From the IMG/VR virus record IMGVR_UViG_2706794662_000004: DNA of 46,219 nucleotides. One strand, written 5' to 3'. The position numbers and the translations under genes are program-made. Positions 1 to 46,219 of the stretch are shown in pieces (position 1 is the stretch's first letter; every line of letters begins with the position of its first letter). The stretch is from a virus (taxonomy: Duplodnaviria > Heunggongvirae > Uroviricota > Caudoviricetes). The notes below the pieces were generated by a model. That model was given only the letters and a program-made list of their open reading frames with translations, was not told the origin of the DNA and did not search any database.

Positions 1-108
1 AATTTGTTCCTTGACTTTGTTCTATAAATCAGCACATAATTCCCCATTATACGCGCGTATAATGGGGAATTATGTGCTGATTTATAGAACAAAGTCAAGG
101 AACAAATT
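1..108. repeat. Left telomere palindrome (hairpin telL read through the turn); centre at 54/55 within tatacgcgcgtata
   Basis: Positions 1-108 are a perfect inverted repeat around the centre; the core cccattatacgcgcgtataatggg resembles the N15 telO/telRL core; telN lies immediately adjacent. Confidence 0.7.
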
Positions 109-245
109 TTAATGTTCTGCTATTGTGTTTTTGTTTATTATCCGTTATTGTGTTCTGTTAGTTTGTGGCTAAGTTAACGCGTTATTAGTTAACTTATTCT
201 CAAATTGTGTTACGATAATCCGAGCGGATAATCAGGAGAGGAAAG

Positions 246-2159
246 ATGAGCAAAGTAAAAATCGGTGAATTAATAAACTCACTTGTTAGCGATGTTGAGT
301 CAATAGATAACTCTGACCGTCCTCAAGGGGAAAAAACAAAAAAAATAAAGGCTGTTGCATTAAAATTTAAAAATGCATTATTTAATGACAAGCGAAAGTT
401 TAGGGGGAAAGGATTAGAAAAAAGAATTACAGCCAACACATTCAATGCCTATATGAGCAGGGCCAGAAAACGGTTTGATGATAAACTTCATCATAGCTTT
501 GAAAAAAATATACATCGCCTATCTGAAAAGTATCCTTTATATAATGAGGAGCTATTGTCATGGCTTTCTCTACCTGCTGCCGATATTCGCCAGAGAATGT
601 CAACTTTACAGGCAAAATTAAAATTAATTCTCCCTTTATCAGAAGATTTATCTAATATCAGAATTGGTGATAACAAAAATCATAATAAGTTATTAAAATT
701 ATCAAATAAATATAAAGAGTGGCAATTCGCAATTTCTGATTTAACTAGCGATAACTGGAAAGATAAGCGCGATTATTTATATAAATTACTACAGCAAGGA
801 TCTGCCTTGCTTGAGGAGTTGAATCAGCTAAAAGTTAACCATGAGATTCTCTATCATCTTCAACTAAGCCCTGCCGAACGCGCATCTATCCAGCAACGAT
901 GGGCGGACGTTCTGCACAATAAGAAACGTAACGTGGTGGTCATTGATTACCCTAAATATATGCAAGCTATTTACGATATTATAAATAGCCCTGCTACATT
1001 AAATAATCTAAACACTCGTTCAGGTATGGCTCCTTTGGCATTTGCACTTGCTGCATTGTCAGGAAGACGAATGATTGAGATTATGTATCAAGGTACATTT
1101 ACTGTTTCTGGTAAGTATACCGTTGATTTTTTAGGCCAAGCTAAAAAAAGAACTTCTGATGATATAACCAGAAAAATATATACATTATGCGAAGCAAAAA
1201 CATTTGTTTATTTAATAAATGTACTTCGCTCATGCCCAGCAGCATCTGATTTTGATGATGTCGTTAAAGGTTATGGAGATAACGACACACGCTCTGAAAA
1301 CGGACGTATTAATGCCATATTAGCAAAGGCTTTTAACCCGTGGGTTAAATCATTTTTCAAAGATGACCGCCGTGTTTATAAAGATAGTCGTGCTATTTAT
1401 GCCCGTATTGCGTATGAAATGTTTTTCCGCGTAGATCCTCGTTGGAAAAACGTAGATGAGGATGTTTTCTTTATGGAAATTTTAGGCCATGACGATGAAA
1501 ACACTCAATTACACTATAAGCAATTCAAGCTGGCCAACTTCTCAAAGACATGGAGGCCAAATACTGGAAACGAAAATACCAGGCTGGAAGCATTGCAGCA
1601 GCTTGATGACGAAATGCCTGGATTCGCCAGAGGAGATGCCGGGGTTCGTCTGCATAACACAGTTAAGCAGCTGGTAGAGCAGGACCCCTCTATAAAAATC
1701 ACGAACAGCACTCTAAGAGCATTCAAATTTAGCCCAACAATGATTAGCCGATACCTGGAATTTGCTGCTGATGCTCTGGGGCAATTTGTTGGCGAAAATG
1801 GACAATGGCAGCTGAAAATAGATACTCCAGAAATCGTTATGCCTGACGAAGAAGAGCTGGAAGCAATACCTGAACAGACGGATGAATTATCAGATGATGA
1901 CGATCTGGATGACGACGAAATTGAGATAGAGGAAGAGGAAGAGGAAGAGGAAGAGGAAGAGGAAGAGAGCGTAGAAGAACAGCAACCGCCCGCGCCTTCT
2001 TCACCTGTATCTAAGCCGGTATTTAAGCCTGTGAGAAATATTGGTGATGGTTCATACGTTGTTGAGTTTCATTATAATGGCCAGAATTATGCTTGGTCCG
2101 GCAGTGCAAACAGCCCTATGTCAGCAATGCAGTTAGCATGGCTGACATATTTCGGATAA
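246..2159 (+). CDS. telN: Protelomerase (telomere resolvase) TelN
   Basis: 637-aa ORF whose N-terminus (MSKVKIGELIN...) and conserved blocks (e.g. RSGMAPLAFALAA, RAIYARIAYEMFF, KQFKLANFS) match my recollection of N15 TelN; it sits next to the telomere palindrome. Confidence 0.9.
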   Translation: MSKVKIGELINSLVSDVESIDNSDRPQGEKTKKIKAVALKFKNALFNDKRKFRGKGLEKRITANTFNAYMSRARKRFDDKLHHSFEKNIHRLSEKYPLYNEELLSWLSLPAADIRQRMSTLQAKLKLILPLSEDLSNIRIGDNKNHNKLLKLSNKYKEWQFAISDLTSDNWKDKRDYLYKLLQQGSALLEELNQLKVNHEILYHLQLSPAERASIQQRWADVLHNKKRNVVVIDYPKYMQAIYDIINSPATLNNLNTRSGMAPLAFALAALSGRRMIEIMYQGTFTVSGKYTVDFLGQAKKRTSDDITRKIYTLCEAKTFVYLINVLRSCPAASDFDDVVKGYGDNDTRSENGRINAILAKAFNPWVKSFFKDDRRVYKDSRAIYARIAYEMFFRVDPRWKNVDEDVFFMEILGHDDENTQLHYKQFKLANFSKTWRPNTGNENTRLEALQQLDDEMPGFARGDAGVRLHNTVKQLVEQDPSIKITNSTLRAFKFSPTMISRYLEFAADALGQFVGENGQWQLKIDTPEIVMPDEEELEAIPEQTDELSDDDDLDDDEIEIEEEEEEEEEEEEESVEEQQPPAPSSPVSKPVFKPVRNIGDGSYVVEFHYNGQNYAWSGSANSPMSAMQLAWLTYFG

Positions 2160-4179: not shown

Positions 4180-4371
4180 TTACTCCCCGTTCACCGAAAA
4201 ATCACGATAGAAACGTTTCCACATACGATAAGTCTGCGCGAGTTGTTCACCACGAAACATCGCCTTCCTGGCCTTCATGTTTTCCTTGTGAGACTTTCGA
4301 TCTATGAACCAAAACCATTGCTGGAACACACAAAGCAAGAGACACAAAGATAATATCCACTGATTACCCAT
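4180..4371 (-). CDS. Small membrane protein (63 aa) translationally coupled to repA
   Basis: Internal Met (MGNQWILSLCLLLCVFQQWFWF...) whose ATG at 4371-4369 overlaps the repA stop codon; the longer 102-aa reading overlaps repA by 125 nt. Confidence 0.35.
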   Translation of the reverse strand: MGNQWILSLCLLLCVFQQWFWFIDRKSHKENMKARKAMFRGEQLAQTYRMWKRFYRDFSVNGE

Positions 4372-7300
4372 AGAAAGCGCCCTGCTCTTCGTAGCTGCAT
4401 GAGCTATTCCCGGTAATGTATTCTCGTAACCGCCGCAGTTCATTGCTGGACAAGTGATCCATGAACTCTGTGAGGTACAGAGATGCAAACGTCATAGCTA
4501 TGCTGGTTGATGACCATGATGACATAGTGGCCAGCTCCTCACCGGAAAGCGCACTCATCGCCCAGGACTCAGGAACAGCCACCGGCAATACGGCCAAAGC
4601 CTCAGAAATTACTGAATGAGGGGCGTTTTGAACCTGCTCGTTTGTGGATCGCGTTTTATCATCCATATATATATTGAGATCCAAATCGCGATCCATTTCG
4701 ATGGCTGTCTTCTCGGCTTTACGCGTTTTTAGGGTTAGGCCATCTTTCTGACGCTGAACAAGAATATCCAGCATAAATGCCGCTGATTCAGGCTCAACAA
4801 AACGCAAGGTTGGACGCTTATCGCCGTCTCTGCCGCGACGTTTACCTGTTTTAAGGCCAAGAGAGTCGCAAATGTTTTTAAACAACGCTTCCGGCACTTT
4901 AGGCTTCCCTTTTGGCGTCATAAAACCACCAATGTGCAGAACGTTATTCAACAGGTCACGGCGTTCGGCTGTCATGAGATTATCTCGAGCGAATTTGAGA
5001 CGCTCCTGAGTCGCCTCGCCGGTCATAGTCTCAGGGTTGATACCGCAGTCGATAAAGTACTGCCGGAGAGTTGCTGATTTAAGCGCATAGAAACCGCGCG
5101 CCCCGACTTCAACAGTAGGAGTAGCTTTTACCTTGTGATCGATTATTCCAGGGAATTTAGTTTTAAAGACATCATCAGCCTGCTCGCGAGTCATCGCGGT
5201 CACTACAAAATATTGCCACTGTCCCGCCTGACGGTATGCGTAGGTAAAATTGATGGCTGCTTCTTCCCGGTCGTAACGACGAGCTGTTACCTCATCTAAA
5301 AGCATTGTTTCATAGCGGCGAACTTTGTCTCGAGCACCATCGAAATAGAATTTCAGTGTGCCTTCTTCAACCGGTAGTTTCAGTTCGTTTTCAATATCCC
5401 AGCGGACAAGTTTTGCCTGTTCTTCAAGCGTCAGCGCGCGTTTTTTTAGCAGTTCTTCACGCTCTGATTCTTGTGGAGTTTCTGTATTGAGGTGCAGATC
5501 CAGTGTCTGTTCCCACACAATATCCCGCGCTTCTTTACGCAGATCTTTACCGATATCATTCGCAGCATAATCGGTGCCCAGCGGCGATACCTTATAACCG
5601 TCGCTGTGCATGATGCAGATCATGTTGCTGGCGTAGTCGTTACGCGCAGTCGCTTCAATTGCGGCTGCTTTAATTTTCATCCTGGTAAAGTCGGTATTGG
5701 CCACCCCCATTGATATACGGTCGCCATCGAAAATGACATCCGTCAGTTCACCGTTCATACCTGCGGTAGCAAGCAATGCCTGGGCGAATGCTCGTTCTAT
5801 TTTTTGCGGGTCAGTTTCACGTTTTGCACGAGCTTTATCAAAGCCGATAATAAATTCTTTTGCTGTACGGTCGCGGCGTAGCATTTGCACTGCGTCGCTG
5901 GGTACAACTTCACCACAGAACATGCCGAAATGACGGTCAAAATGTTTTTGCTCAATCGACACGCCGGATGAAATAGACGGGCTATAAATCAGGCCGTCGT
6001 ATTTTTTGACCATCTTTTTCGGTTGATTGGTAAATGCTTCAACTTCTGGCTCTGGTTTGTTTTTCTGGTTTACACACAGAAATTTCTTACCAGGAAAATG
6101 CATTCTCAGGGTGGCTGTCACATCTTCTGCAAAGGTGGAGCTGTCGGTGGCCAACATGATTTTTTCGCCATCCGATACAGCTTTCACCACCTCGGTCATG
6201 ATGCGATCTTTTTCTGTATAAAAAACCCGGATTGGCTCACCTGTTTCGCGGTTGCGAACATCAACAGGTAATTCAATTACGTGGATCTGCAGCCATGCCG
6301 GTAAACCTAGTTCTTCACGGCGTTTCATAGCCAGTTCAGCCAGGTCAACCAGCAGATCGTTCGCATCAGCATCCACCATGATTGGGTGTTGTTCCGTTCT
6401 GGCCAGCGCGTCAATTAGCGTATTGAATACAGCCACCGGGTTTTCCATAGCCCGACCGGAAAGAACGGCACGTAGCCCTTGTGTGGCCTCGTCAAAGCCA
6501 AAATAGTCGTGCTGGCGCATCAACGGTTGCCAGCAGTTTTTAACAATCGAGTTTATGCAGATGGTCAGTTTACTGGCGTATGGAGCCATTTCCTGATAGC
6601 CAGGGTCCTGATAGTGCAGGATATCGGCTTTTACACCTTTTCCTTCAGTCATCATTTCCCACAGGCCACCAATAAGGGAAACACGGTGAGCTACAGAGAT
6701 ACCGCGTTCTGAGCTATGCATTAACGGTCGTAACAATCCAGTAGATTTGCCGGAACCCATACCAGCACGAACGATGACGATCCCCTGTAGTGATTGCACG
6801 TACTTCAGGACGTCATCGGTCATTACCGAAGTTTCAAAACGCTTATAGGTGATATGTTGAGGGCGTTTATTGGGATCAGTTATGCGTTCGCTGAAAGAGC
6901 GCGGAGCCTGGGCAATACGGCACTTTTTATTCAGGCGACGGGCAATGTGGTCTTTTACCGTAGCGCGATAGATATTTTCCAGCCCCATTTCACGCAGAAC
7001 GATGCAGAACATGTTAAACAAATCTGACGGACTGTTAGGAACCGGACAGGTTAGCATGCCAATATCCACCGCTCTCAGCAGCTCTTTGGCAAAAGTACGA
7101 CGGTTATCCCGCTTAATTGTCTTCAGGCGGTTGAGCGTCAGAGATAGCAAATCAGTGCCGGTTTTCAGGCGGTTTGCTGTTGCAAATAGTTGACGTGCTG
7201 TTTCACGAAGTCCACGTAGTTTGTGCAGGTCGTTGAAGTCACTGCACTCCATTTGCGGATCGTCTTCAAAAGTTGGATAGACGCAGCGGACATCGTTGAA

Positions 7301-8359
7301 TTTCGATAAGATTTCATAGCCAGTCCGCAGGCCGGTATTCCCTTTTCCTTCTGTGGCTGATTTCCGGTCATTATCCAGTGCGCAGGTGATTTTTGCCGCC
7401 GGGTACATGTTTACCAGTTGTTCCACAACATGAACCATGTTGTTAGCGGATACAGCGACAACCACAGCGTCAAAGCGTTTATCTTTTTTCGTGGCAAGCC
7501 AGATGGATGCACCAGTAGCAAAACCTTCTGTAACAGCGATGTTTTGCGCCCCTTTCAGCTCACCGATAACAAAGCAGGCACCGACGAAATCGCCGCTGGT
7601 TACTGCGCTGGTCTGGTATTTCCCACCTTGTTTGTCGATTCGCTGCCAACCCACAATACGACCATCGTAACGACCGTCCAGGTGAGCCAGAGGGATAGCC
7701 ATATATGTGGTTGGCCCCCGGTTCCATTTCGCACTGTCGTGACTGGTCACGCGACGCACATCACATGAACTAAAAACGTCACGAATACCTTTTTTAATCG
7801 CATATGGCCATGAGCCGTCTTCTGCAGGAGCATGTTCCCACGCGCTGTGGAATGCCAGCCATCCCAGCAAACGTTCATGGTCCATTTGGTTGTTTTTCAG
7901 GTCATTAATTCGTTTTTGTTCTTCACGGCGACGACGTGCTTCGGCCTGACGTTTTATTCTTGCCCGTTCTTCTTCCGGTTGTGCGACCACGGTCGCATTA
8001 TTCCGTTGTTGCTCACGGCGATATTCAGAAAACAGGAAGGAGAAACCGCTCCATGAGCCAGCATCGCTGCCTTTATGGACGAAGTTAATGAACGGGTAAT
8101 CAATCCCTTTGCTGTGTTCCAGCCGAGAGTAAATTTCTACGCGTCCTTTGAGGCTCTTTTCGAGAGCTTCTGGAGATGTTTTATTGTATGAAGAGTAACG
8201 CTCAACACCCCCGCGAGGGTTGAGTTGGATGTTGTCGGAACAGGCAGACCAGTTGATACCAGCCATCTGTGCCAGCTCGGTTAGTTCATCCCGTGCTGCT
8301 TCAATTAGCGAGAACGGATCGCTGCCAAAGCGATCCGCATAGAAATCGTTTAATGTCAT
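4364..8359 (-). CDS. repA: Multifunctional replication protein RepA (primase-helicase, 1331 aa)
   Basis: Size close to N15 RepA (about 1324 aa as I recall); Walker A GMGSGKST in the central helicase part; position upstream of the cB immunity region as in N15. Confidence 0.85.
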   Translation of the reverse strand: MTLNDFYADRFGSDPFSLIEAARDELTELAQMAGINWSACSDNIQLNPRGGVERYSSYNKTSPEALEKSLKGRVEIYSRLEHSKGIDYPFINFVHKGSDAGSWSGFSFLFSEYRREQQRNNATVVAQPEEERARIKRQAEARRRREEQKRINDLKNNQMDHERLLGWLAFHSAWEHAPAEDGSWPYAIKKGIRDVFSSCDVRRVTSHDSAKWNRGPTTYMAIPLAHLDGRYDGRIVGWQRIDKQGGKYQTSAVTSGDFVGACFVIGELKGAQNIAVTEGFATGASIWLATKKDKRFDAVVVAVSANNMVHVVEQLVNMYPAAKITCALDNDRKSATEGKGNTGLRTGYEILSKFNDVRCVYPTFEDDPQMECSDFNDLHKLRGLRETARQLFATANRLKTGTDLLSLTLNRLKTIKRDNRRTFAKELLRAVDIGMLTCPVPNSPSDLFNMFCIVLREMGLENIYRATVKDHIARRLNKKCRIAQAPRSFSERITDPNKRPQHITYKRFETSVMTDDVLKYVQSLQGIVIVRAGMGSGKSTGLLRPLMHSSERGISVAHRVSLIGGLWEMMTEGKGVKADILHYQDPGYQEMAPYASKLTICINSIVKNCWQPLMRQHDYFGFDEATQGLRAVLSGRAMENPVAVFNTLIDALARTEQHPIMVDADANDLLVDLAELAMKRREELGLPAWLQIHVIELPVDVRNRETGEPIRVFYTEKDRIMTEVVKAVSDGEKIMLATDSSTFAEDVTATLRMHFPGKKFLCVNQKNKPEPEVEAFTNQPKKMVKKYDGLIYSPSISSGVSIEQKHFDRHFGMFCGEVVPSDAVQMLRRDRTAKEFIIGFDKARAKRETDPQKIERAFAQALLATAGMNGELTDVIFDGDRISMGVANTDFTRMKIKAAAIEATARNDYASNMICIMHSDGYKVSPLGTDYAANDIGKDLRKEARDIVWEQTLDLHLNTETPQESEREELLKKRALTLEEQAKLVRWDIENELKLPVEEGTLKFYFDGARDKVRRYETMLLDEVTARRYDREEAAINFTYAYRQAGQWQYFVVTAMTREQADDVFKTKFPGIIDHKVKATPTVEVGARGFYALKSATLRQYFIDCGINPETMTGEATQERLKFARDNLMTAERRDLLNNVLHIGGFMTPKGKPKVPEALFKNICDSLGLKTGKRRGRDGDKRPTLRFVEPESAAFMLDILVQRQKDGLTLKTRKAEKTAIEMDRDLDLNIYMDDKTRSTNEQVQNAPHSVISEALAVLPVAVPESWAMSALSGEELATMSSWSSTSIAMTFASLYLTEFMDHLSSNELRRLREYITGNSSCSYEEQGAFYG
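7982..7997. promoter_or_regulatory. 16-bp perfect palindrome TGCGACCACGGTCGCA, candidate SopB centromere site (copy 1, inside repA)
   Basis: Exact palindrome, one of five copies; resembles the F sopC core TGGGACCACGGTCCCA. Confidence 0.5.
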
Positions 8360-19869: not shown

Positions 19870-19881
19870 GGGCGGAAGGCG
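19870..19881. other. cosN, predicted 12-nt cohesive end GGGCGGAAGGCG; cosB-like repeats follow to about 20050
   Basis: Flanks caggctacg and cgcgggttttcgctatttatgaaaattttccggtttaaggcg match my recollection of the lambda cos region; the central 12-mer differs from lambda GGGCGGCGACCT. Confidence 0.55.
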
Positions 19882-24305: not shown

Positions 24306-25605
24306 TCTCCCGCATATTGCCAGCATGGCCTTTAATGAGCCGCTTATGCTTGAACCCGCCTATGCGCGGGTTTTCTTTTGTGCGCTTGCAGGCCAGCTTG
24401 GGATCAGCCGCCTGACGGATGCGGTGTCCGGTGACAGCCTGACTGCCGGAGAGGCACCCGCGACGCTGGCGTTATCCGTTAATGATGACGGACCACGACA
24501 GGCCCGCAGTTATCAGGTCATGAACGGCATCGCCGTGCTGCCGGTTTCCGGCACGCTGGTCAGCCGGACGCGGGCGCTGCAGCCGTATTCGGGGATGACC
24601 GGTTACAACGGCATTATCGCCCGTCTGCAACAGGCTGCCAGCGACCCGATGGTGGACGGCATTCTGCTGGATATGGACACGCCCGGCGGAATGGTGGCAG
24701 GGGCATTTGACTGCGCTGACATCATCGCCCGTGTGCGTGACATAAAGCCGGTATGGGCGCTGGCCAATGACATGAACTGCAGCGCAGGTCAGCTGCTTGC
24801 CAGTGCCGCCTCCCGGCGTCTGGTCACGCAGACCGCCCGGACAGGCTCCATCGGCGTCATGATGGCTCACAGTAATTACGGTGCTGCGCTGGAGAAACAG
24901 GGCGTGGAAATCACGCTGATTTACAGCGGCAGCCATAAGGTGGATGGCAACCCCTACAGCCATCTTCCTGATGACGTCAGGGAGACACTGCAGTCCCGGA
25001 TGGACGCAACCCGCCAGATGTTTGCGCAGAAGGTGTCGGCATATACCGGCCTGTCCGTGCAGGCTGTGCTGGATACCGAGGCTGCAGTGTACAGCGGTCA
25101 GGAGGCCATTGATGCCGGACTGGCTGATGAACTTGTTAACAGCACCGATGCGATCACCGTCATGCGTGATGCACTGGATGCACGTAAATCCCGTCTCTCA
25201 GGAGGGCGAATGACCAAAGAGACTCAATCAAAAACTGTTTCAGCCACTGCTTCGCAGGCTGACGTTACTGACGTGGTGCCAGCGACGGAGGGCGAAAACG
25301 CCAGCGCGGCGCAGCCGGACGTGAACGCGCAGATCACCGCTGCGGTTGCGGCAGAAAACAGCCGCATTATGGGGATCCTCAACTGTGAGGAGGCTCACGG
25401 ACGCGAAGAACAGGCCCGCGTGCTGGCAGAAACCCCCGGTATGACCGTGGAAACGGCCCGCCGCATTCTGGCAGCTGCACCACAGAGTGCACAGGCGCGC
25501 AGTGACACTGCGCTGGATCGTCTGATGCAGGGGGCACCGGCACCGCTGGCTGCAGGTAACCCGGCATCTGATGCCGTTAACGATTTGCTGAACACACCAG
25601 TGTAA
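24286..25605 (+). CDS. C: Head protease/scaffold C (Nu3 scaffold nested in-frame in its 3' part)
   Basis: GTG start at 24286 gives a 439-aa product beginning (M)TAELRNLPHIASMAFNEPLMLEPAYARVFF as recalled for lambda C; the track ORF from 24151 is an upstream extension. Confidence 0.8.
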
Positions 25606-26002: not shown

Positions 26003-27028
26003 ATGTCGATGTACACAACCGCCCAGCTGCTGGCGGCAAATGAGAAGAAATTTAAGTTTGATCCGCTGTTTCTGCGTCTCTTTTTCCGTGAGAGCTATCC
26101 CTTCACCACGGAGAAAGTCTATCTCTCACAAATTCCGGGACTGGTAAACATGGCGCTGTACGTTTCGCCGATTGTTTCCGGTGAGGTTATCCGATCCCGT
26201 GGCGGCTCCACCTCTGAATTTACACCGGGATATGTCAAGCCCAAGCATGAGGTGAATCCGCAGATGACCCTGCGTCGCCTGCCGGATGAAGATCCACAGA
26301 ATCTGGCGGACCCGGCTTACCGCCGCCGTCGCATCATCATGCAGAACATGCGAGACGAAGAGCTGGCCATTGCCCAGGTCGAAGAGATGCAGGCAGTTTC
26401 TGCCGTGCTTAAGGGCAAATACACCATGACCGGTGAAGCCTTCGATCCGGTTGAAGTGGATATGGGCCGCAGTGCGGCGAACAACATCACACAGTCCGGT
26501 GGTACGGAGTGGAGCAAGCGTGACAAGTCCACGTATGACCCGACCGACGATATCGAAGCCTATGCGCTGAACGCCAGCGGAGTGGTGAATATCATCGTGT
26601 TTGATCCGAAAGGCTGGGCGCTGTTCCGTTCCTTCAAAGCCGTCAAGGAGAAGCTGGATACCCGTCGCGGCTCTAATTCCGAGCTGGAGACAGCGGTAAA
26701 AGACCTGGGTGAAGCGGTGTCCTATAAGGGGATGTATGGCGATACGGCGATCGTCGTGTATTCCGGACAGTACGTGGAAAACGACGTCAAAAAGAACTTC
26801 CTGCCGGACAACACGATGGTGCTGGGGAACACTCAGGCACGCGGTCTGCGCACCTATGGCTGCATTCAGGATGCGGACGCACAGCGCGAAGGTATTAACG
26901 CCTCTGCCCGCTACCCGAAAAACTGGGTGACCACCGGCGATCCGGCGCGTGAGTTCACCATGATTCAGTCAGCACCGCTGATGCTGCTGGCTGACCCTGA
27001 TGCGTTCGTGTCCGTACAACTGGCGTAA
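26003..27028 (+). CDS. E: Major capsid protein E
   Basis: 341-aa product from MSMYTTAQLLAANE matches recalled lambda gpE; the track start at 25976 is upstream. Confidence 0.9.
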   Translation: MSMYTTAQLLAANEKKFKFDPLFLRLFFRESYPFTTEKVYLSQIPGLVNMALYVSPIVSGEVIRSRGGSTSEFTPGYVKPKHEVNPQMTLRRLPDEDPQNLADPAYRRRRIIMQNMRDEELAIAQVEEMQAVSAVLKGKYTMTGEAFDPVEVDMGRSAANNITQSGGTEWSKRDKSTYDPTDDIEAYALNASGVVNIIVFDPKGWALFRSFKAVKEKLDTRRGSNSELETAVKDLGEAVSYKGMYGDTAIVVYSGQYVENDVKKNFLPDNTMVLGNTQARGLRTYGCIQDADAQREGINASARYPKNWVTTGDPAREFTMIQSAPLMLLADPDAFVSVQLA

Positions 27029-28819: not shown

Positions 28820-29560
28820 ATGCCTGTACCAAATCCTGTAATGCCGGTGAAAGGTGCCGGGACCACACTGTGGGTTTATAAGGGGAACGGTGACCCTTAT
28901 GCGAACCCGCTTTCAGACGTTGACTGGTCGCGTCTGGCAAAAGTTAAAGACCTGACACCCGGCGAACTGACCGCTGAGTCCTATGACGACAGCTATCTCG
29001 ATGATGAAGATGCGGACTGGACTGCGACCGGGCAGGGGCAGAAATCTGCCGGAGATACCAGCTTCACGCTGGCGTGGATGCCCGGAGAGCAGGGGCAGCA
29101 GGCGCTGCTGGCGTGGTTTAATGAAGGTGATACCCGTGCCTATAAAATCCGCTTCCCGAACGGCACGGTCGATGTGTTCCGTGGCTGGGTCAGCAGTATC
29201 GGTAAAGCGGTGACGGCGAAGGAAGTGATCACCCGCACGGTGAAGGTCACCAATGTGGGACGCCCGTCGATGGCTGAAGATCGCAGTACGGTGACGGCAG
29301 CAACCGGCATGACGGTAACGCCAGCCAGTGCTTCCGTAGTGAAAGGGCAGAGCACCACGCTGACCGTGGCATTCCAGCCGGAAGGTGTAACCGACAAGAG
29401 CTTCCGTGCGGTGTCTGCGGATAAAACAAAAGCCACCGTGTCGGTCAGTGGTATGACCATCACCGTGAACGGCGTTGCTGCAGGCAAGGTCAACATTCCG
29501 GTTGTATCCAGTAATGGTGAGTTTGCTGCGGTTGCAGAAATCACCGTCACCGCCAGTTAA
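28820..29560 (+). CDS. V: Major tail protein V
   Basis: 246-aa product from [22 protein letters not shown] matches recalled lambda gpV. Confidence 0.85.
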
Positions 29561-35370: not shown

Positions 35371-38300
35371 ATGGGTAAAGGAAGCAGTAAGGGGCATACC
35401 CCGCGCGAAGCGAAGGACAACCTGAAGTCCACGCAGTTGCTGAGTGTGATCGATGCCATCAGCGAAGGGCCGGTTGAAGGTCCGGTGGATGGATTAAAAA
35501 GCGTGCTGCTGAACAGTACGCCGGTGCTGGACACTGAGGGGAATACCAACATCTCCGGTGTCACGGTGGTGTTCCGTGCCGGTGAGCAGGAGCAGACACC
35601 GCCGGAGGGGTTTGAATCCTCCGGCTCCGAGACGGTGCTGGGTACGGAAGTGAAATATGACACGCCGATCACCCGCACCATTACGTCTGCAAACATCGAC
35701 CGTCTGCGCTTTACCTTCGGTGTACAGGCACTGGTGGAAACCACCTCAAAGGGTGACAGGAATCCGTCGGAAGTCCGTCTGCTGGTTCAGATACAACGTA
35801 ACGGTGGCTGGGTGACGGAAAAAGACATCACCATTAAGGGCAAAACCACCTCGCAGTATCTGGCCTCGGTGGTGGTGGGTAGCCTGCCGCCGCGCCCGTT
35901 TAATATCCGGATGCGCAGGATGACGCCGGACAGCACCACAGACCAGCTGCAGAACAAAACGCTCTGGTCGTCATACACCGAAATCATCGATGTGAAACAG
36001 GGCTACCCGAACACGGCACTGGTCGGCGTGCAGGTGGATTCGGAGCAGTTCGGCAGCCAGCAGGTGAGCCGTAATTATCATCTGCGCGGGCGCATTCTGC
36101 AGGTGCCGTCGAACTATAACCCGCAGACGCGGCAATACAGCGGTATCTGGGACGGAACGTTTAAACCGGCATACAGCAACAACATGGCCTGGTGTCTGTG
36201 GGATATGCTGACCCATCCGCGCTACGGCATGGGGAAACGTCTTGGTGCGGCGGATGTGGATAAATGGGCGCTGTATGTCATCGGCCAGTACTGCGACCAG
36301 TCAGTGCCGGACGGTTTTGGCGGCACGGAGCCGCGCATCACCTGTAATGCCTACCTGACCACGCAGCGTAAGGCGTGGGATGTGCTCAGTGATTTCTGCT
36401 CGGCGATGCGCTGTATGCCGGTATGGAACGGGCAGACGCTGACGTTCGTGCAGGACCGACCATCAGATAAGGTGTGGACCTATAACCGCAGTAATGTGGT
36501 GATGCCGGATGATGGCGCGCCGTTCCGCTACAGTTTCAGCGCCCTGAAGGACCGCCATAATGCCGTTGAGGTGAACTGGATTGACCCGGATAACGGCTGG
36601 GAGACGGCGACAGAGCTTGTTGAAGATGCGCAGGCCATTGCCCGTTACGGTCGTAACGTCACGAAGATGGATGCCTTTGGCTGTACCAGCCGGGGGCAGG
36701 CGCACCGCGCCGGGCTGTGGCTGATTAAAACGGAACTGCTGGAAACGCAGACCGTGGACTTCAGCGTGGGTGCTGAAGGGCTTCGCCATGTACCGGGCGA
36801 TGTCATTGAAATCTGCGATGATGACTATGCCGGTATCAGCACCGGTGGTCGCGTGCTGGCGGTAAACAGCCAGACCCGGACGCTGACGCTCGACCGTGAA
36901 ATCACGCTGCCATCCTCCGGTACCACGCTGATAAGCCTGGTTGACGGAAGTGGCAATCCGGTCAGCGTGGAGGTTCAGTCCGTCACCGACGGCGTGAAGG
37001 TGAAAGTGAGCCGTGTTCCTGACGGCGTTGCTGAATACAGCGTGTGGGGGCTGAAGCTGCCGACGCTGCGCCAGCGCCTGTTCCGCTGCGTGAGTATCCG
37101 TGAGAACGACGACGGCACGTATGCCATCACCGCCGTGCAGCATGTACCGGAAAAAGAAGCCATCGTGGATAACGGGGCGCACTTTGACGGCGACCAGAGC
37201 GGCACGGTGAATGGTGTCACGCCGCCAGCGGTGCAGCACCTGACCGCCGAAGTCACCGCAGACAGCGGGGAGTATCAGGTACTGGCCCGCTGGGACACGC
37301 CGAAGGTGGTGAAGGGCGTGAGTTTCATGCTTCGCCTGACCGTGGCAGCGGATGACGGCAGTGAGCGGCTGGTCAGCACGGCCCGGACGACGGAAACCAC
37401 TTACCGCTTCACACAACTGGCTCTGGGGAACTACAGGCTGACAGTCCGGGCAGTAAATGCGTGGGGGCAGCAGGGCGATCCGGCGTCGGTATCGTTCCGG
37501 ATTGCCGCACCGGCAGCGCCGTCGCGGATTGAGCTGACGCCGGGCTATTTTCAGATAACCGCCACGCCGCATCTTGCGGTTTATGATCCGACGGTACAGT
37601 TTGAGTTCTGGTTCTCGGAAAAGCGGATTGCGGATATCAGGCAGGTTGAAACCACAGCACGCTATCTTGGCACGGCGCTGTACTGGATAGCCGCCAGTAT
37701 CAATATCAGGCCGGGCCATAATTATTATTTTTACGTTCGCAGTGTGAACACCGTTGGCAAATCGGCATTCGTGGAGGCTGTTGGTCAGCCGAGTGATGAC
37801 GCATCCGGCTATCTGGATTTTTTCAAAGGCGAGATAGGGAAAACCCATCTGGCTCAGGAGCTGTGGACGCAGATTGATAACGGTCAGCTTGCGCCTGACC
37901 TGGCTGAAATCAGGACATCCATTACGGATGTCAGCAATGAAATCACACAGACCGTCAATAAGAAACTGGAAGACCAGAGTGCAGCGATCCAGCAGATACA
38001 GAAGGTTCAGGTTGATACAAATAATAATCTGAACAGCATGTGGGCTGTGAAGCTGCAGCAGATGCAGGACGGACGCCTTTATATCGCGGGTATCGGTGCC
38101 GGTATTGAGAACACCCCCGACGGCATGCAGAGTCAGGTGCTGCTGGCGGCAGACAGGATTGCGATGATTAATCCTGCAAATGGCAACACAAAACCGATGT
38201 TTGTTGGTCAGGGTGATCAGATATTCATGAATGAAGTGTTCCTGAAATATCTGACGGCTCCCACCATTACCAGCGGCGGTAATCCTCCTGCATTTTCCCT

Positions 38301-38850
38301 GACACCGGACGGAAAGCTGACCGCTAAAAATGCAGATATCAGTGGCAGTGTGAATGCGAACTCCGGGACGCTCAACAACGTTACGATAAATGAGAACTGT
38401 CAGATTAAAGGGAAACTGTCAGCCAACCAGATTGAAGGCGATATTGTCAAAACAGTGGGTAAGGCTTTCCCGCGGGACTCCCGGGCACCGGAGCGGTGGC
38501 CATCAGGGACCATTACCGTCAGGATTTATGACGATCAGCCGTTTGACCGGCAGATTGTTATTCCGGCGGTGGCATTCAGCGGTGCTAAACATGAGAGAGA
38601 GCATACTGATATTTACTCCTCATGCCGCCTGATAGTGAAGAAAAATGGTGCTGAAATTTATAACCGTACCGCGCTGGATAATACGCTGATTTACAGTGGT
38701 GTTATTGATATGCCAGCTGGTCACGGCCACATGACGCTGGAGTTTTCGGTGTCAGCATGGCTGGTAAATGACTGGTATCCCACAGCAAGTATCAGCGATT
38801 TGCTGGTTGTGGTGATGAAGAAAGCCACCGCAGGCATCAGTATCAGCTGA
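35371..38850 (+). CDS. J: Central tail fibre / host specificity protein J (1159 aa)
   Basis: N-terminus [34 protein letters not shown] matches recalled lambda J; the C-terminal part differs from lambda. Confidence 0.9.
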
Positions 38851-38867
38851 ATTTTATAACCCATATA

Positions 38868-38894
38868 CGGGCGCCAGAAATGGCGCCTTTTTTA
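38868..38894 (+). terminator. Intrinsic terminator after J
   Basis: ggcgccagaaatggcgcc hairpin followed by six T. Confidence 0.5.
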
Positions 38895-38917
38895 TTGCAG
38901 AAAAGCGAGAGGTAATT

Positions 38918-39517
38918 ATGCGTAAAGTTTGTGCAGCCATTTTGTCCGCAGCCATCTGTCTGGCCGTATCCGGTGCGCCTGCATGGGCGTCTGAGCAGCA
39001 GGCCACACTGAGCGCAGGGTATCTTCATGCCCGTACGAACGCTCCCGGCAGCGATAATCTGAACGGGATTAACGTGAAATACCGTTATGAGTTTACGGAC
39101 ACGCTGGGGCTGATTACGTCATTCAGTTATGCCAACGCTGAAGATGAGCAAAAAACGCATTACAGCGATACCCGCTGGCATGAGGATTCCGTGCGTAATC
39201 GCTGGTTCAGCGTGATGGCGGGGCCGTCTGTGCGCGTGAATGAATGGTTCAGCGCGTATGCGATGGCGGGTATGGCTTACAGCCGTGTGTCGACTTTCTC
39301 CGGGGATTATATCCGCGTAACTGACAACAAGGGGAAAACGCACGATGTGCTGACCGGAAGTGATGACGGTCGCCACAGCAACACGTCTCTGGCGTGGGGA
39401 GCTGGCGTGCAGTTTAACCCGACCGAATCCGTGGCCGTTGACGTCGCTTATGAAGGCTCCGGCAGCGGTGACTGGCGTACCAACAGTTTCATCGTTGGTG
39501 TCGGTTATAAATTCTGA
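38918..39517 (+). CDS. lom: Outer-membrane protein Lom
   Basis: Signal peptide plus beta-barrel-like sequence ending GVGYKF; position after J as in lambda. Confidence 0.85.
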   Translation: MRKVCAAILSAAICLAVSGAPAWASEQQATLSAGYLHARTNAPGSDNLNGINVKYRYEFTDTLGLITSFSYANAEDEQKTHYSDTRWHEDSVRNRWFSVMAGPSVRVNEWFSAYAMAGMAYSRVSTFSGDYIRVTDNKGKTHDVLTGSDDGRHSNTSLAWGAGVQFNPTESVAVDVAYEGSGSGDWRTNSFIVGVGYKF

Positions 39518-39543
39518 TTAGCCAGGTAACACAGTGTTATGAC

Positions 39544-39571
39544 AGCCCGCCGGTTCAGGCGGGCTTTTTTG
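39544..39571 (+). terminator. Intrinsic terminator after lom
   Basis: gcccgccggttcaggcgggc hairpin followed by six T. Confidence 0.5.
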
Positions 39572-39581
39572 TGGGGGGAAT

Positions 39582-42500
39582 ATGGCAGTACGGATTTCAG
39601 GTGTACTGAAAGATGGCGCAGGTAAGCCGATACAAAACTGCACCATTCAGCTAAAGGCCAGGCGCAACAGCACCACGGTGGTGGTGAACACAGTGGCCTC
39701 AGAAAACCCGGATGAAGCCGGGCGTTACACAATGGACGTCGAGTATGGTCAGTACAGCGTCAGTCTGTTGGTGGAGGGATTCCCGCCGTCACACGCCGGG
39801 ACCATCACCGTGTATGAAGATTCCCGACCCGGTACGCTGAATGATTTTCTCGGTGCCATGACGGAGGATGATGCCCGTCCTGAGGCACTGCGCCGTTTTG
39901 AACTGATGGTGGAAGAGGTGGCGCGTAACGCGTCCGCGGTGGCACAGAACACGGCAGCCGCGAAGAAGTCAGCCAGCGATGCCAGCACATCAGCCCGTGA
40001 GGCGGCAACCCATGCGACTGATGCTGCAGGCTCAGCACGCGCAGCCAGCACGTCAGCCGGACAGGCCGCGTCGTCGGCTCAGTCAGCATCTTCCAGCGCA
40101 GGAACGGCATCAACAAAGGCCAGTGAAGCATCGAAAAGTGCTGCTGCTGCAGAGTCCTCAAAAAGCGCGGCAGCTACCAGTGCCGGTGCGGCGAAAACGT
40201 CAGAAACGAATGCGGCAGCGTCACAACAATCAGCAGCCACTTCTGCATCCGCCGCGACCACGAAGGCGTCAGAAGCAGCCACCTCAGCCCGGGATGCGGC
40301 GGCCTCAAAAGAGGCAGCGAAATCATCAGAAACGAACGCATCATCAAGCGCCAGTAGTGCCGCTTCCTCGGCAACGGCGGCAGGCAATTCCGCGAAGGCG
40401 GCAAAGACGTCTGAGACAAACGCCAGGTCTTCTGAAACGGCAGCGGGACAGAGCGCCTCGGCTGCGGCAGGCTCAAAAACAGCGGCTGCGTCGTCTGCCA
40501 GTGCCGCGTCAACAAGTGCCGGGCAGGCCTCAGCCAGTGCCACCGCCGCCGGAAAATCGGCAGAAAGCGCCGCATCGTCTGCTTCAACAGCCACAACGAA
40601 GGCTGGCGAAGCCACTGAACAGGCCAGCGCAGCAGCAAGGTCTGCTTCCGCAGCGAAGACATCCGAGACGAACGCGAAAGCGTCGGAAACCAGCGCAGAA
40701 TCCTCAAAAACGGCTGCCGCATCGTCCGCCAGTTCGGCGGCGTCATCGGCATCATCGGCGTCTGCTTCAAAAGATGAGGCGACCAGACAAGCGTCCGCAG
40801 CGAAGGGCAGCGCCACGACGGCATCCACGAAGGCGACAGAGGCAGCTGGCAGTGCGACGGCGGCAGCACAGAGCAAAAGTACGGCGGAATCCGCGGCAAC
40901 GCGCGCCGAGACAGCGGCAAAACGGGCAGAGGATATTGCATCCGCCGTGGCGCTTGAGGATGCAAGTACGACGAAAAAGGGGATAGTACAGCTCAGCAGT
41001 GCGACCAACAGTACGTCTGAAACGCTGGCGGCAACGCCAAAGGCAGTAAAATCAGCCTATGACAATGCAGAGAAACGTCTGCAGAAAGACCAGAACGGCG
41101 CTGATATACCCGATAAGGGACGCTTCCTGAACAACATTAACGCGGTCAGTAAAACAGACTTTGCTGATAAGCGTGGTATGCGTTATGTGCGGGTTAACGC
41201 TCCTGCAGGTGCAACATCTGGAAAATATTACCCTGTTGTTGTTATGCGTTCTGCTGGCTCAGTAAGCGAACTGGCATCAAGGGTCATTATCACCACGGCA
41301 ACGCGAACCGCAGGCGATCCGATGAATAACTGCGAGTTTAACGGATTTGTTATGCCTGGTGGCTGGACTGACAGGGGGCGTTATGCTTATGGAATGTTCT
41401 GGCAATATCAAAACAATGAACGAGCCATCCACTCAATAATGATGAGTAATAAGGGCGATGATTTGCGCTCTGTGTTCTATGTTGATGGCGCTGCTTTCCC
41501 TGTTTTTGCGTTTATCGAAGATGGCCTGTCAATATCCGCACCTGGTGCTGATCTCGTTGTTAATGATACGACCTATAAGTTTGGGGCAACAAATCCGGCG
41601 ACTGAATGTATCGCGGCGGACGTTATCCTTGATTTTAAGAGTGGGCGTGGTTTTTATGAGTCTCATTCGTTAATCGTTAACGATAACTTGTCGTGCAAAA
41701 AACTTTTTGCCACAGACGAAATTGTAGCGCGTGGTGGTAATCAGATTCGAATGATAGGTGGGGAGTATGGGGCATTATGGCGTAATGATGGCGCTAAAAC
41801 TTACCTGCTGCTTACCAATCAAGGTGATGTTTATGGTGGCTGGAATACATTAAGACCGTTTGCTATTGATAACGCAACCGGCGAACTGGTTATTGGAACC
41901 AAACTGTCCGCAAGTCTGAACGGTAATGCATTAACAGCAACAAAGCTGCAAACGCCAAGACGGGTTTCTGGTGTTGAGTTTGATGGTTCCAAAGATATTA
42001 CTTTAACCGCCGCGCATGTGGCTGCTTTTGCCAGAAGGGCAACGGATACATATGCCGATGCGGATGGTGGCGTTCCCTGGAATGCCGAATCAGGCGCTTA
42101 TAATGTCACCCGCTCTGGCGACAGCTATATTCTGGTTAACTTCTATACCGGAGTCGGAAGTTGCCGGACCTTGCAGATGAAGGCGCATTACAGAAATGGT
42201 GGTCTGTTCTACCGTTCTTCAAGAGACGGTTATGGTTTTGAGGATGACTGGGCAGAAGTTTATACCTCGAAAAATCTTCCACCAGAAAGCTACCCAGTCG
42301 GCGCACCAATCCCGTGGCCATCAGATACCGTTCCGTCTGGTTATGCCCTGATGCAGGGGCAGACTTTTGACAAATCTGCTTACCCGAAACTTGCAGCCGC
42401 TTATCCGTCAGGCGTGATCCCTGATATGCGTGGCTGGACGATTAAGGGCAAACCTGCCAGTGGTCGGGCCGTATTGTCTCAGGAACAGGACGGCATTAAA

Positions 42501-42980
42501 TCGCATACCCACAGCGCCAGCGCATCCAGTACAGATTTGGGGACGAAAACCACATCGTCGTTTGATTACGGCACTAAATCCACGAATAACACTGGTGCGC
42601 ATACCCATAGTTTAAGTGGCAGCACGAATGCAGCTGGTAATCACAGCCATAGAGATGGCCGTCGATTTAACCCCAGTGTTTTTAAAGATACTTATCAATA
42701 TGGTTATACAAGCTCAGGTCAAAATACCTGGGGTGTACAAGGCTCAGTAGGTATGTCTACGGGGTGGTTAGCGAATACCAGTACAGATGGTAATCATAGC
42801 CATTCACTGTCCGGCACAGCAGCATCTGCAGGTGCACACGCGCATACTGTCGGTATTGGTGCTCATACGCACTCCGTTGCGATTGGTTCACATGGACACA
42901 CCATCACCGTTAACGCTGCTGGTAACGCGGAAAACACCGTCAAAAACATCGCATTTAACTATATTGTGAGGCTTGCATAA
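39582..42980 (+). CDS. stf: Side tail fibre protein Stf (1132 aa)
   Basis: N-terminus [38 protein letters not shown] and His-rich C-terminus (HSHSLSGT ... [15 protein letters not shown] ... [11 protein letters not shown]) match recalled lambda Stf. Confidence 0.85.
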
Positions 42981-43555
42981 TGGCATTCAGAATGAGTGAA
43001 CAACCACGGACCATAAAAATTTATAATCTGCTGGCCGGAACTAATGAATTTATTGGTGAAGGTAACGCATATATTCCGCCTCATACAGGTCTGCCAGCAA
43101 ACAGTACCGATATTGCACCACCAGATATTCCTGCTGGCTTTGTGGCTGTTTTCAACAGTGATGAGGCATCGTGGCATCTCGTTGAAGATCATCGGGGTAA
43201 AACGGTTTATGACGTGGCTTCCGGCGACGCGTTATTTATTTCTGAACTCGGTCCGTTACCGAAAAATGTTACCTGGTTATCGCCGGAAGGGGAGTTTCAG
43301 AAGTGGAACGGCACAGCCTGGGTGAAGGATACGGAAGCAGAAAAACTGTTCCGGATCCGGGAGGCGGAAGAAACAAAAAACAACCTGATGCAGGTAGCCA
43401 GTGAGCATATTGCGCCGCTTCAGGATGCTGTAGATCTGGAAATCGCAACAGAGGAAGAAACCTCGTTGCTGGAAGCTTGGAAAAAGTATCGGGTGTTGCT
43501 GAACCGTGTTGATACATCACTATCTCCAGATATCGAGTGGCCAAGTCAACCATAA
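42980..43555 (+). CDS. tfa: Tail fibre assembly protein Tfa
   Basis: [28 protein letters not shown] matches recalled lambda Tfa. Confidence 0.85.
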
Positions 43556-43587: not shown

Positions 43588-44553
43588 TTAATTATCAGTA
43601 GATTGTTCCTCTAGTAACAACTCAATTCTGCTTAGTATTTCTTTAGATATTTTGCGGCTATCAATTTTTATAGTTACAAAATTACCTTTATATCTAGCCG
43701 TGATCCCTTCCCCATATTTTTTCTCGTCTTTTGTTTTTTCCTCGTCGCCAACCAGAACAGAGTCAGATAATATTTGTATAATCCGTGAAGCTTCTAAATC
43801 CTCGCCGTTTTTTTTAATTACTAGAAGATGATGAGCAGCATTGCTCATGGCAGCCATGTTTTTTTTGTAAACCTTAAACAAAGAATCTCCAGCACGAGCT
43901 GACAGTTCTCCTGGATGATTGAAGATAGCTAATATATCTTTTGGTAGACCAGCTGTATTAATACAGCGAGTGATAATATTTCTATCTATATTTTCAGCCT
44001 CGGCTAATGCTTTAACGTTACCATCAAAGTCATTTAGCTTGCGTAAGTATCTCTTTCCTCTTTCGTATGCACTAATAGGTCTATAATCGTTACCAATTTG
44101 GGATAACCAATGCATCTGTTCATCGTCGAGATCACCAATTAAGACGCGATAGTCACATCCTGTTAATATCGCTGCTTTTCTTCTACGTGAGCCGTCAGCG
44201 ACTTCAACGATTCCAGATACTTTTCTGGCGAAAGCTGGATTTTGTTGTCCAGACGTTAGAAAAGATGGGATTAAATCGGCTAGAGAGGATTCATTTAATA
44301 AATCTTGATCGCGTTCATTACCTAGCCATACCATTGTTGCCATTTCAACTTTATCTGCGGGAATTGTCTCTAACTTAAAGTTAACATTACGTCCGCATAC
44401 TGGCAAAGTTATGCTGTTACCGGTTAATGAACTCAGTTGACGTTTTAAATCACCAACCATAGGTGATACGGGCTGATGTTCAGGGGCATGATGATTATTA
44501 CTCATAATGCGATTAATATCTGGAGCATTTTTTAGAAGAGAGCGCTGTTTCAT
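43588..44553 (-). CDS. sopB: Partition protein SopB (ParB family)
   Basis: 321-aa ORF immediately downstream of and overlapping sopA; ParB-like features. Confidence 0.75.
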   Translation of the reverse strand: MKQRSLLKNAPDINRIMSNNHHAPEHQPVSPMVGDLKRQLSSLTGNSITLPVCGRNVNFKLETIPADKVEMATMVWLGNERDQDLLNESSLADLIPSFLTSGQQNPAFARKVSGIVEVADGSRRRKAAILTGCDYRVLIGDLDDEQMHWLSQIGNDYRPISAYERGKRYLRKLNDFDGNVKALAEAENIDRNIITRCINTAGLPKDILAIFNHPGELSARAGDSLFKVYKKNMAAMSNAAHHLLVIKKNGEDLEASRIIQILSDSVLVGDEEKTKDEKKYGEGITARYKGNFVTIKIDSRKISKEILSRIELLLEEQSTDN

Positions 44554-45719
44554 TATTCGTTCTCCCAGCGAGGTTTTATTAGATCATCAAAAATTTCTCG
44601 GCAAACAGGGTCCCATATAGAAACAGCATTTCTCCATGCATTCAATGTTGAACGTTGGTTTGCTGCTTGTTCAAATACTGTTCTCATTTTTATCTGGCCT
44701 TTACCTACTTCATCGGTAACGCGTACAACCTGACGTAATACCATTGATCCCCATGTATTTCTTATTTGTTCTTCCATCCATCGTGATTGATTCCCTGTAG
44801 TGAGACTATATTTAGTCAGAAGTAAGCGAACGGTTGGCTCAAATCCACCTAGGTCAACGCTTTCCAATAGATCGAGAAGCATTGTGAAAAACTGTAGAAC
44901 AGAAGCGTAATCAAATAATTCTGCAGGTGTAGCAACAACAATAACGTCAGCGGCACAAACAACGTTAATGGTTCCTGTACCGAGGTTCGGAGCACTATCT
45001 ATAACGATAACATCGTAGTTATCCCAAACTGATTCAATAGCTGCGCGCAGCATAAGGTGTGGAGGATGAGGCAATTTACCCTGAGCATGATATTGCATGA
45101 GATCTGTTTCTATACGATGTAAGGCTAGGCAGCTAGGGATAATGTCTAGCCCAGGCCAACATGTTGGCTTTATAGCATATTCAGCGTTATCGCGTTCTCC
45201 TAAGTAAAATGGCAGTAAAGTATCCTCGGCATGGATATGTAAATCAGGAACATAACCGTGATACATAGAGGCCGTGCCTTGAGGATCGTTACCTTCAACC
45301 AAAAGAACACGATGACCTTGTAATGCTAACCATTGAGCTTGATGTACCGCAGACGATGTTTTATAAACGCCGCCTTTGTGTGACATAACGGCAAGCACAA
45401 CAGGGTTTTTATCTTGTGGTCGTTGGTTTGGGTTGCCAAAAACTGCTCGCATACTGTTGATTTGATCTATGGTATAACCAGCACGACGTTCAATTCTTCC
45501 TCTCATTTCAAAGTCAGGTGCAGGTAAACGCCCGCTCTTCTCAGCATCTCTAATTGCTTGAGGAGTTACACCAATTAAATCTGCTACTTCAGTTATACCC
45601 CATCGGCGGGTGATACGCCGAGCTTCAGGACTATCATCACCGAATTGAGCGATAGCAATTGCTTGGGTCATTTCTTGACCTCTCGTAACACAATCTTGCA
45701 ATAACTTTTTCAAAGACAT
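44553..45719 (-). CDS. sopA: Partition ATPase SopA (ParA family)
   Basis: 388-aa ORF with Walker A KGGVYKTS and N-terminal HTH; extensive identity to F SopA as I recall it. Confidence 0.9.
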   Translation of the reverse strand: MSLKKLLQDCVTRGQEMTQAIAIAQFGDDSPEARRITRRWGITEVADLIGVTPQAIRDAEKSGRLPAPDFEMRGRIERRAGYTIDQINSMRAVFGNPNQRPQDKNPVVLAVMSHKGGVYKTSSAVHQAQWLALQGHRVLLVEGNDPQGTASMYHGYVPDLHIHAEDTLLPFYLGERDNAEYAIKPTCWPGLDIIPSCLALHRIETDLMQYHAQGKLPHPPHLMLRAAIESVWDNYDVIVIDSAPNLGTGTINVVCAADVIVVATPAELFDYASVLQFFTMLLDLLESVDLGGFEPTVRLLLTKYSLTTGNQSRWMEEQIRNTWGSMVLRQVVRVTDEVGKGQIKMRTVFEQAANQRSTLNAWRNAVSIWDPVCREIFDDLIKPRWENE

Positions 45720-45822: not shown

Positions 45823-45994
45823 ATATTTGAGCTAAATCATCTTTTTTTCCCCTCCCGAAATGCATAAAACGAACAACAATATAATCATAACTAATTGATA
45901 TTTATTACCTTTCTTAAGAAAGGAAATCATATAAAACTAGAGAAACATGATAAGAATCATCAATGAGATACGTTTTCTCTATTAGTTCTCCCAA

Positions 45995-46132
45995 CCTTAC
46001 AAATATAAGAACACAAATACAGAACATAAAAACCAAGTAATAACACAAACACAATAAAGAACACAAATAAAGAATTAAAACAAATGTTAAACAAAACAGT
46101 ACGCAAACTGAGAACATTACATTAAATAAGAA
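45995..46132. repeat. Cluster of AGAACA(C/T)-type direct repeats next to the right telomere
   Basis: At least six copies of agaaca within about 140 bp; the left telomere-proximal region (110-160) carries the complementary tgttct motif. Confidence 0.4.
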
Positions 46133-46218
46133 CACTAATTAAGAACATAACGAAACATAATTCCCCATTATACGCGCGTATAATGGGGAATTATGTTTCG
46201 TTATGTTCTTAATTAGTG
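46133..46218. repeat. Right telomere palindrome (hairpin telR read through the turn); centre at 46175/46176
   Basis: 86-bp perfect palindrome sharing the same 40-bp core as the left end but with different outer arms. Confidence 0.7.
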
Positions 46219-46219
46219 T

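Follow-up and report, generated by a model that had tools for sequence, protein, structure and literature searches.

The stretch of DNA analysed here, called the window below, is 46,219 nucleotides long and is a complete N15-type linear plasmid prophage, in the prophage permutation. It is collinear with N15 in prophage order (telL-telN-...-repA-cB-...-cos-structural genes-sopBA-telR), with a DNA identity of 68-77%, and it carries both a linear-plasmid maintenance module (repA, sopAB and a CB-type repressor) and lambda-like morphogenesis genes. The features are as follows, in coordinates of the window.

87..155, unstranded: sub-telomeric motifs on the telL side, GAACA at 87 and 100, TGTTC at 113 and 151
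246..2159, plus strand: telN, protelomerase of 637 amino acids, called from Pfam, a match to 2v6e and comparison with N15; it starts about 190 bp inside telL
4364..8359, minus strand: repA-like primase/replication protein, 1331 amino acids
8605-9201: CB-type repressor
19870..19881, plus strand: putative cos, GGGCGGAAGGCG, identical at 8/12 positions to N15 GGGCGGCGTCCG, with conserved flanks
In N15 order: methylase, lysis genes, and lambda-like head and tail genes
43588..45719, minus strand: sopB (43588-44553) and sopA (44553-45719), partition genes adjoining telR, as N15 genes 27 and 28
45871..46147, plus strand: sub-telomeric array of seven GAACA motifs with the consensus (A/G)GAACA(C/T)(A/T)A, each oriented toward the telR apex

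The putative cos lies upstream of the terminase genes (small terminase) and differs from that of N15 at 4 of its 12 positions. The call is tentative, because the N15 cos junction aligned weakly (69%), and if it is correct, telRL would lie near 26306/26307 in a virion genome of 46,121 bp. The lambda cos 12-mer is absent from the window in both exact and one-mismatch searches. When the molecule is divided into bins of 300 bp, GAACA/TGTTC is densest in those at its two ends, with six and four instances compared to a mean of about 0.9. The tos region of N15 extends over 310 bp and contains the degenerate repeats L1, L2, R1 and R2 (PMC12624138), to which the GAACA motifs plausibly correspond.

Some other elements may be mentioned in passing. 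Two Rfam families score above their gathering thresholds on the minus strand, C4 antisense RNA at 2813-2899 (73.6 bits) and isrK at 2925-2998 (62.8 bits). The region they span, downstream of telN in a gap without a long open reading frame, is probably an immA-type secondary immunity region (antirepressor control), as in N15 and P1. A full-length match to the Rfam IS009 RNA (43323-43521, plus strand, 224.5 bits) lies within the tail-fibre-assembly reading frame at 42980-43555. The block from 38000 to 43555, comprising the end of J, lom, the side tail fibre and its assembly gene, indicates a mosaic exchange of the host-range module, since its identity to lambdoid phages of E. coli (PhiR34_1, Kati, mEp332 and others) is 95-97%, whereas PhiR46_1, otherwise the closest relative, matches it only in part (52% cover, 89% identity).

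Both ends of the window are perfect palindromes with no spacer, as found both by a repeat search and by a direct scan. The left one is 108 bp long (1-108, arms of 54+54 nt, 1-54 and 55-108) and the right one 88 bp (46132-46219, arms of 44+44 nt, 46132-46175 and 46176-46219). They reach base 1 and base 46219 exactly, with unequal arms, 54 versus 44 nt. Elsewhere in the window, a scan for perfect palindromes of the same kind found arms of at most 9 nt, and an arm of 44 nt would be expected anywhere in the window by chance with a frequency of about 1e-22. Folded as single strands, both palindromes form perfect hairpins, one of -44.1 kcal/mol (z = -16.6) and the other of -57.5 kcal/mol (z = -20.5). 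The G+C content of the first kilobase, which holds the telomere and the 5' end of telN, is 34%, compared to 53-62% in the lambda-like structural genes (20000-41000 of the window). The arms of the palindromes, and the core that they share, are laid out as follows.

1..54, unstranded: copy of telL produced by fold-back, matching the reverse complement of 55-108 exactly, from the first base of the window
55..108, unstranded: telL, the genome-proximal arm of the left palindrome, with its apex between 54 and 55; it contains half of telO (55-65), half of the core (55-75) and, at 73-81, the outer repeat in its conserved form, TGTGCTGAT, which is complementary to ATCAGCACA
34..75, unstranded: left copy of the shared palindromic core, 42 bp, with telO at 44-65
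46132..46175, unstranded: telR, the genome-proximal arm of the right palindrome, with its apex between 46175 and 46176; it contains half of telO (46165-46175), half of the shared core (46155-46175) and the degenerate outer repeat TAACGAAACA (46148-46157)
46155..46196, unstranded: right copy of the shared palindromic core, 42 bp, including the 22-bp telO at 46165-46186
46176..46219, unstranded: copy of telR produced by fold-back, matching the reverse complement of 46132-46175 exactly, up to the last base of the window

An earlier note on this DNA had recognized the right palindrome but placed it at 46133-46218, one base short on each side. It had also described a core of 40 bp common to the two ends. 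The 40-mer that it quoted is itself palindromic and is present in two exact copies (35-74 and 46156-46195), so the sharing is real, but the identity of the ends continues for one base more on each side, giving a core of 42 bp with a dyad half-length of 21. Beyond that the ends part company, just as the note had said of the outer arms: five of the seven positions 22-28 from the dyad are asymmetric. The central 22 bp, which the note had thought to resemble the telO of N15, are in fact identical to telO of both N15 and phiKO2 when the junction halves are aligned with the annotated telRL of each. This sequence, CCATTATACGC|GCGTATAATGG, is a palindrome with (CG)3 at its dyad, and in the window it occurs only at 44 and 46165. 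Used as a query against the genome contig collection, the 42-bp core had no matches, and among RefSeq complete E. coli genomes there was no full match at 99% or above. A terminal inverted repeat of the sort found at the ends of transposons was considered and rejected: the shared segment is itself palindromic, is centred on telO and is flanked by nonhomologous arms.

In the alignment to positions 24775-24830 of N15, the centres of both palindromes fall on the telO dyad, which is annotated in N15 as the cut at 24802/3. The telRL/tos site of N15 (AF064539; inverted repeat 24775-24830) thus shares with the window its 22-bp telO, the centre of its dyad and its place in the order sopBA - telRL - telN, as well as the outer repeat of the L side, TGTGCTGAT, and the pair of proximal telL-side GAACA motifs with their 13-bp spacing. 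The sites are not the same, however. The dyad of the window is perfect to 21 bp on either side, while in N15 positions 12 and 14 of each half are asymmetric, and the R-side outer repeat of the window, TAACGAAACA rather than TATCAGCACA, departs from the near-perfect 56-bp palindrome of N15. The records differ as well, in that N15 was deposited with an intact telRL, in the permutation of the virion (cos), and the window has the prophage permutation with its hairpins unfolded. In phiKO2 (telRL at 29121-29170 of AY374448), telO is again identical, but positions 12-21 of the site differ, as do host and genome, and the outer repeat, ACAGCACA, is symmetric on both sides.

A stem-loop at the end of the sopAB or telomere-proximal region might instead be read as a transcription terminator or some other regulatory structure, and a consensus scan does pick out, on each strand, terminator-like sites at 46152-46199 and 32-77. 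These sites, however, are the telomere palindrome itself, caught by a rule that looks for a stem plus a run of T, and half of each stem is the fold-back copy. Moreover, no gene reads into them: sopA is transcribed away from telR, and telN begins well inside telL. We regard a terminator as having almost no chance of being the right explanation.

The enzyme expected to act on such a site is encoded next to telL. TelN matches the Pfam families TelK_N, TelK_muzzle, ResT-TelK_cat and TelK_stirrup, all above cut-off, and its residues 1-536 align with 2v6e (E = 6e-295, 983 bits), the crystal structure of TelK538 on a 44-mer (PMC3575837), so that all four domains of TelK are represented. The 44-mer is close in size to the perfect 42-bp core of the window (PMC3575837). 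TelN is 77% identical in amino acid sequence to its N15 namesake, with the same catalytic tyrosine motif. The predicted catalytic residue, Tyr424, lies in HYKQF (HDDENTQLHYKQF) and aligns with the tyrosine of TelK and of N15 TelN. Between telL and the start of telN there is an imperfect inverted repeat of 17 nt (162-178 / 188-204, 82% complementary, with a 9-nt spacer) containing GTTAAC twice; this repeat may act as an operator of telN or as an element of its promoter.

The palindrome at the right end is very probably telR, the closed hairpin end of an N15-type linear plasmid prophage, read around the turn, and that at the left end telL, read in the same way; both ends of the molecule would be covalently closed. 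By this reading, which the earlier note missed, the distal arms (1-54 and 46176-46219) would be the other strand of the same hairpins rather than additional DNA, because they end exactly at the termini of the window, they are unequal in length, and related sequences mirror themselves about the same centre. If the arms are fold-back copies, then the physical duplex would run from 55 to 46175, a length of 46,121 bp. Unequal arms of 54 and 44 nt that reach both termini are what one would get from reading through by an arbitrary distance, and a known signature of covalently closed ends is a long read that carries on around the hairpin and along the opposite strand (PMC13293297).

The relatives show how arbitrary that distance can be, with mirroring about the identical centre that ranges from 32 nt to 6.6 kb. 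Among IMG/VR contigs that share the 42-bp core, there are fold-backs of 32, 34 and 51 nt and one of at least 1.7 kb, and the PhiR46_1 record folds back by 11 nt at each end. In YDC107_1 (CP025712) the mirror is at least 3054 bp long, at 99.9%, and produces a second, frameshifted 'protelomerase' on the opposite strand. In NZ_CP104505 it is 4065 bp and perfect to the start of the record. In NZ_LT906558 it extends to 6.6 kb, at 99.9%, and the mirrored sopA, tail-fibre and lom genes appear as frameshifted pseudogenes. Records of 60-90 kb in PLSDB with four match places were grouped with these mirror-duplicated records. The mirror duplications on the scale of kilobases in public 'complete' records of relatives are artefacts of assembling through a hairpin, carried over into annotation.

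As printed, the palindromes have the sequences of telLL (left) and telRR (right), 46176-46219 being the distal half of telRR. Junctions of this kind are produced by replication and resolved by TelN (PMC12624138). Perhaps, then, the palindromes were real duplex, taken from replicative intermediates (head-to-head dimers), and the ends of the window are truncated telRR and telLL junctions. Those junctions would have exactly this sequence and are transient in the replication of N15 (PMC12624138), and in sequence, reading through a hairpin looks like reading across a replicated junction; indeed, an oligonucleotide consisting of ntelR and its reverse complement has served either as a hairpin or as a telRR duplex (PMC12624138). 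Against this possibility, the contig ends once the arms have reached 44 and 54 nt, with no second copy of the genome following, and fold-backs that are short or variable in length recur in many independent assemblies. The steady-state form in N15 lysogens is the resolved hairpin monomer. We therefore consider replicative duplex to be very improbable as the source of the arms. The target of TelN and the biology of the telomere are the same in either case.

When the proximal halves are joined (46132-46175 + 55-108), the result is a telRL of 98 bp. The earlier note had proposed that the outer halves of the two palindromes be joined. It was right in taking one half from each, as the distal halves placed apex to apex (1-54 + 46176-46219) give the reverse complement of telRL, but literal end-to-end circularization, from 46219 to 1, gives ...TTAGTGT|AATTTGTT..., which is not a target. 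That the composite is a protelomerase target is borne out by the coincidence of its dyad with the cut annotated in N15, by the adjoining telN, and by the presence of the rebuilt junction as contiguous sequence in relatives. A query of 600 bp across the junction was covered in one piece by eight circular PLSDB records, at 88-97% identity, and in the seven that were inspected (all of the eight but CP126913), the junction lies between sopA and the protelomerase gene. A scan of IMG/VR found the R|L junction in three contigs. One of these, IMGVR_UViG_2648501186_000001 (L019), has a contiguous telRL flanked on each side by sequence 99.8-99.9% identical to that of the window, and it provides the best in silico evidence that the junction form would exist for what is essentially this element.

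The contiguous telRL of the circular records could be in part a product of the assembly graph, as the shared palindromic core forms a repeat node in such graphs, and assembler-made circular joins are therefore conceivable. In one IMG/VR genome, contigs from the R side and the L side (L015 and L018) break exactly at the edges of the core. One might go further and suppose that the element is circular in vivo, or that the palindromes are chimeras of the library or the assembler, the true sequence having a single palindrome resembling telRL. Eight related records were, after all, deposited as circular, with one contiguous junction each, and assemblers do break or misjoin at the core, as with L015 and L018. 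It is hard, however, to reconcile this idea with palindromes that are both centred precisely where the telO dyad and the N15 cut lie, with an intact telN that retains its catalytic tyrosine, with fold-back assemblies that recur in independent long-read records of relatives, or with the close relative PhiR46_1, deposited as a linear molecule with telL and telR, and we give a circular or chimeric origin scarcely any credence. Resolved hairpin ends remain the preferred reading, and homology to the experimentally established telRL of N15 and phiKO2 supports a telRL divided between the two ends independently of any circular joins. The earlier note's view that the ends hold the two halves of telRL is supported and correct in substance; it is textbook biology.

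How the site would be processed can be proposed from the homology of the enzyme to N15 TelN and phiKO2 TelK; the closed ends, the positions of the cuts and the activity of TelN on this particular site are all predictions. [quoted passage not shown] Staggered cuts would be made a few base pairs to the left and right of the dyad, with Tyr424 forming a 3'-phosphotyrosyl link, and the self-complementary overhangs would then fold back, each to be resealed into a hairpin. Staggered cutting, fold-back and joining by a protelomerase have been described (PMC10612081). Three substrates with the same 42-bp core would be available to the enzyme. The first, telRL, would be present once in the phage genome circularized at cos and would be cut once after infection, establishing the prophage. 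The other two, telLL and telRR, would arise as the hairpins are copied around during replication and would be cut after each round, separating the daughter molecules.

Similar arrangements are found at several distances from the window. The nearest belong to its own clade, which consists of linear plasmid prophages of E. coli and E. albertii, e.g., CP056845, LT906558 and IMGVR_UViG_2648501186_000001, with TelN at least 99.2% identical. PhiR46_1 (PV340565) is a member, 97% identical over the left 8 kb, and in its linear record the terminal 22 bp are annotated as telL and telR. It differs from the window in its canonical, symmetric telR outer repeat, in TTTCCC/GGGAAA in the core and in the tail-fibre region. 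A literature search on PhiR46_1 found no paper. Yersinia phages PY54 and vB_YenS_P840 are more distant. They share the life style and have a palindromic telRL beside the protelomerase gene, but the palindrome differs in sequence and length, that of PY54 being 42 bp (PMC12624138). More distant yet are the replicated junctions acted on by ResT of Borrelia and TelA of Agrobacterium. The reaction is of the same class, conversion of a dyad-symmetric junction to two hairpins by a resolvase resembling tyrosine recombinases, and the ResT-TelK catalytic domain that Pfam detects in TelN of the window links it to that class. However, the sites are unrelated, the replicons are chromosomes or plasmids rather than phages, and the muzzle and stirrup architecture of TelK is missing.

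One feature of the site does not follow the N15 pattern. The N15 site of about 56 bp has symmetric outer repeats (L3/R3), and in the window only that of the L side is kept: telL has TGTGCTGAT, while telR has the degenerate TAACGAAACA where N15 has TATCAGCACA. The telR outer repeat comes in two alleles within the clade, AACGAAAC and a canonical form, ATCAGCAC (46148-46157 of the window versus 73-82), and the variant is common to at least 11 related records. The records are distributed as follows.

Variant telR repeat: LT906558, CP104505, CP056845, CP055252, CP117561, OY757103 and the IMG/VR contigs L015, L019, L020 and L023
Variant telR repeat with one further substitution: CP148365
Canonical telR repeat: PhiR46_1, CP135212, OY754439 and L021

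Strictly speaking, the degenerate repeat is a departure from the 56-bp site of N15, but the membership of the window in the N15-type system stands, because the canonical repeat is present in some related sites and absent from others. Over the two groups of records taken together, the identity of TelN is at least 99.2%. No co-variation was found between the stirrup domain of TelN and the telR outer-repeat allele, variant and canonical elements having the same stirrup sequence. Since TelN is the same in the two groups, the same enzyme presumably tolerates both forms of the repeat. Closer to the centre of the site, at position 14 from the dyad, the two halves usually co-vary symmetrically (C:G, T:A or A:T), and only CP135212 and OY754439 are asymmetric there.

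What the variant repeat does, if anything, is a matter for conjecture. Perhaps telR has lost an outer repeat bound by TelN, so that telRR, telRL and telLL form a graded series of substrates and the ends of the molecule are asymmetric; or perhaps the variant is natural proof that the core, to 21 bp on either side of the dyad, suffices. Either proposal seems to us rather doubtful. In P840, an inverted repeat flanking the site is dispensable for resolution in vivo (PMC10612081), which has its parallel in the lineage of the window, where loss of the telR outer repeat is presumably tolerated.

For users of the sequence, the 98 terminal bases are fold-back copies that should be trimmed or annotated as hairpin read-through, leaving 55-46175 as the true replicon. 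The same cause lies behind several public records of relatives, which have suffered either mirror duplications of kilobases, complete with spurious frameshifted pseudogenes, or circularization.

For the biology of the group, the window adds one more N15-type telomere phage-plasmid in Escherichia. The system is known, and close relatives have already been deposited and annotated, so variation in the telR repeat with an unchanged TelN is the sole point that is even mildly new. An outer arm that varies naturally, combined with an invariant enzyme, provides a test, already to hand, of which sequences outside the core TelN requires, and variation in the site is relevant as well to the biotechnology built on TelN and telRL (linear closed DNA vectors). 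If the outer repeat aids the affinity of TelN or the protection of the telomere, then elements such as this one would have a built-in asymmetry between their two ends, affecting either which telomere is resolved first or more efficiently, or how well each is protected from SbcCD.
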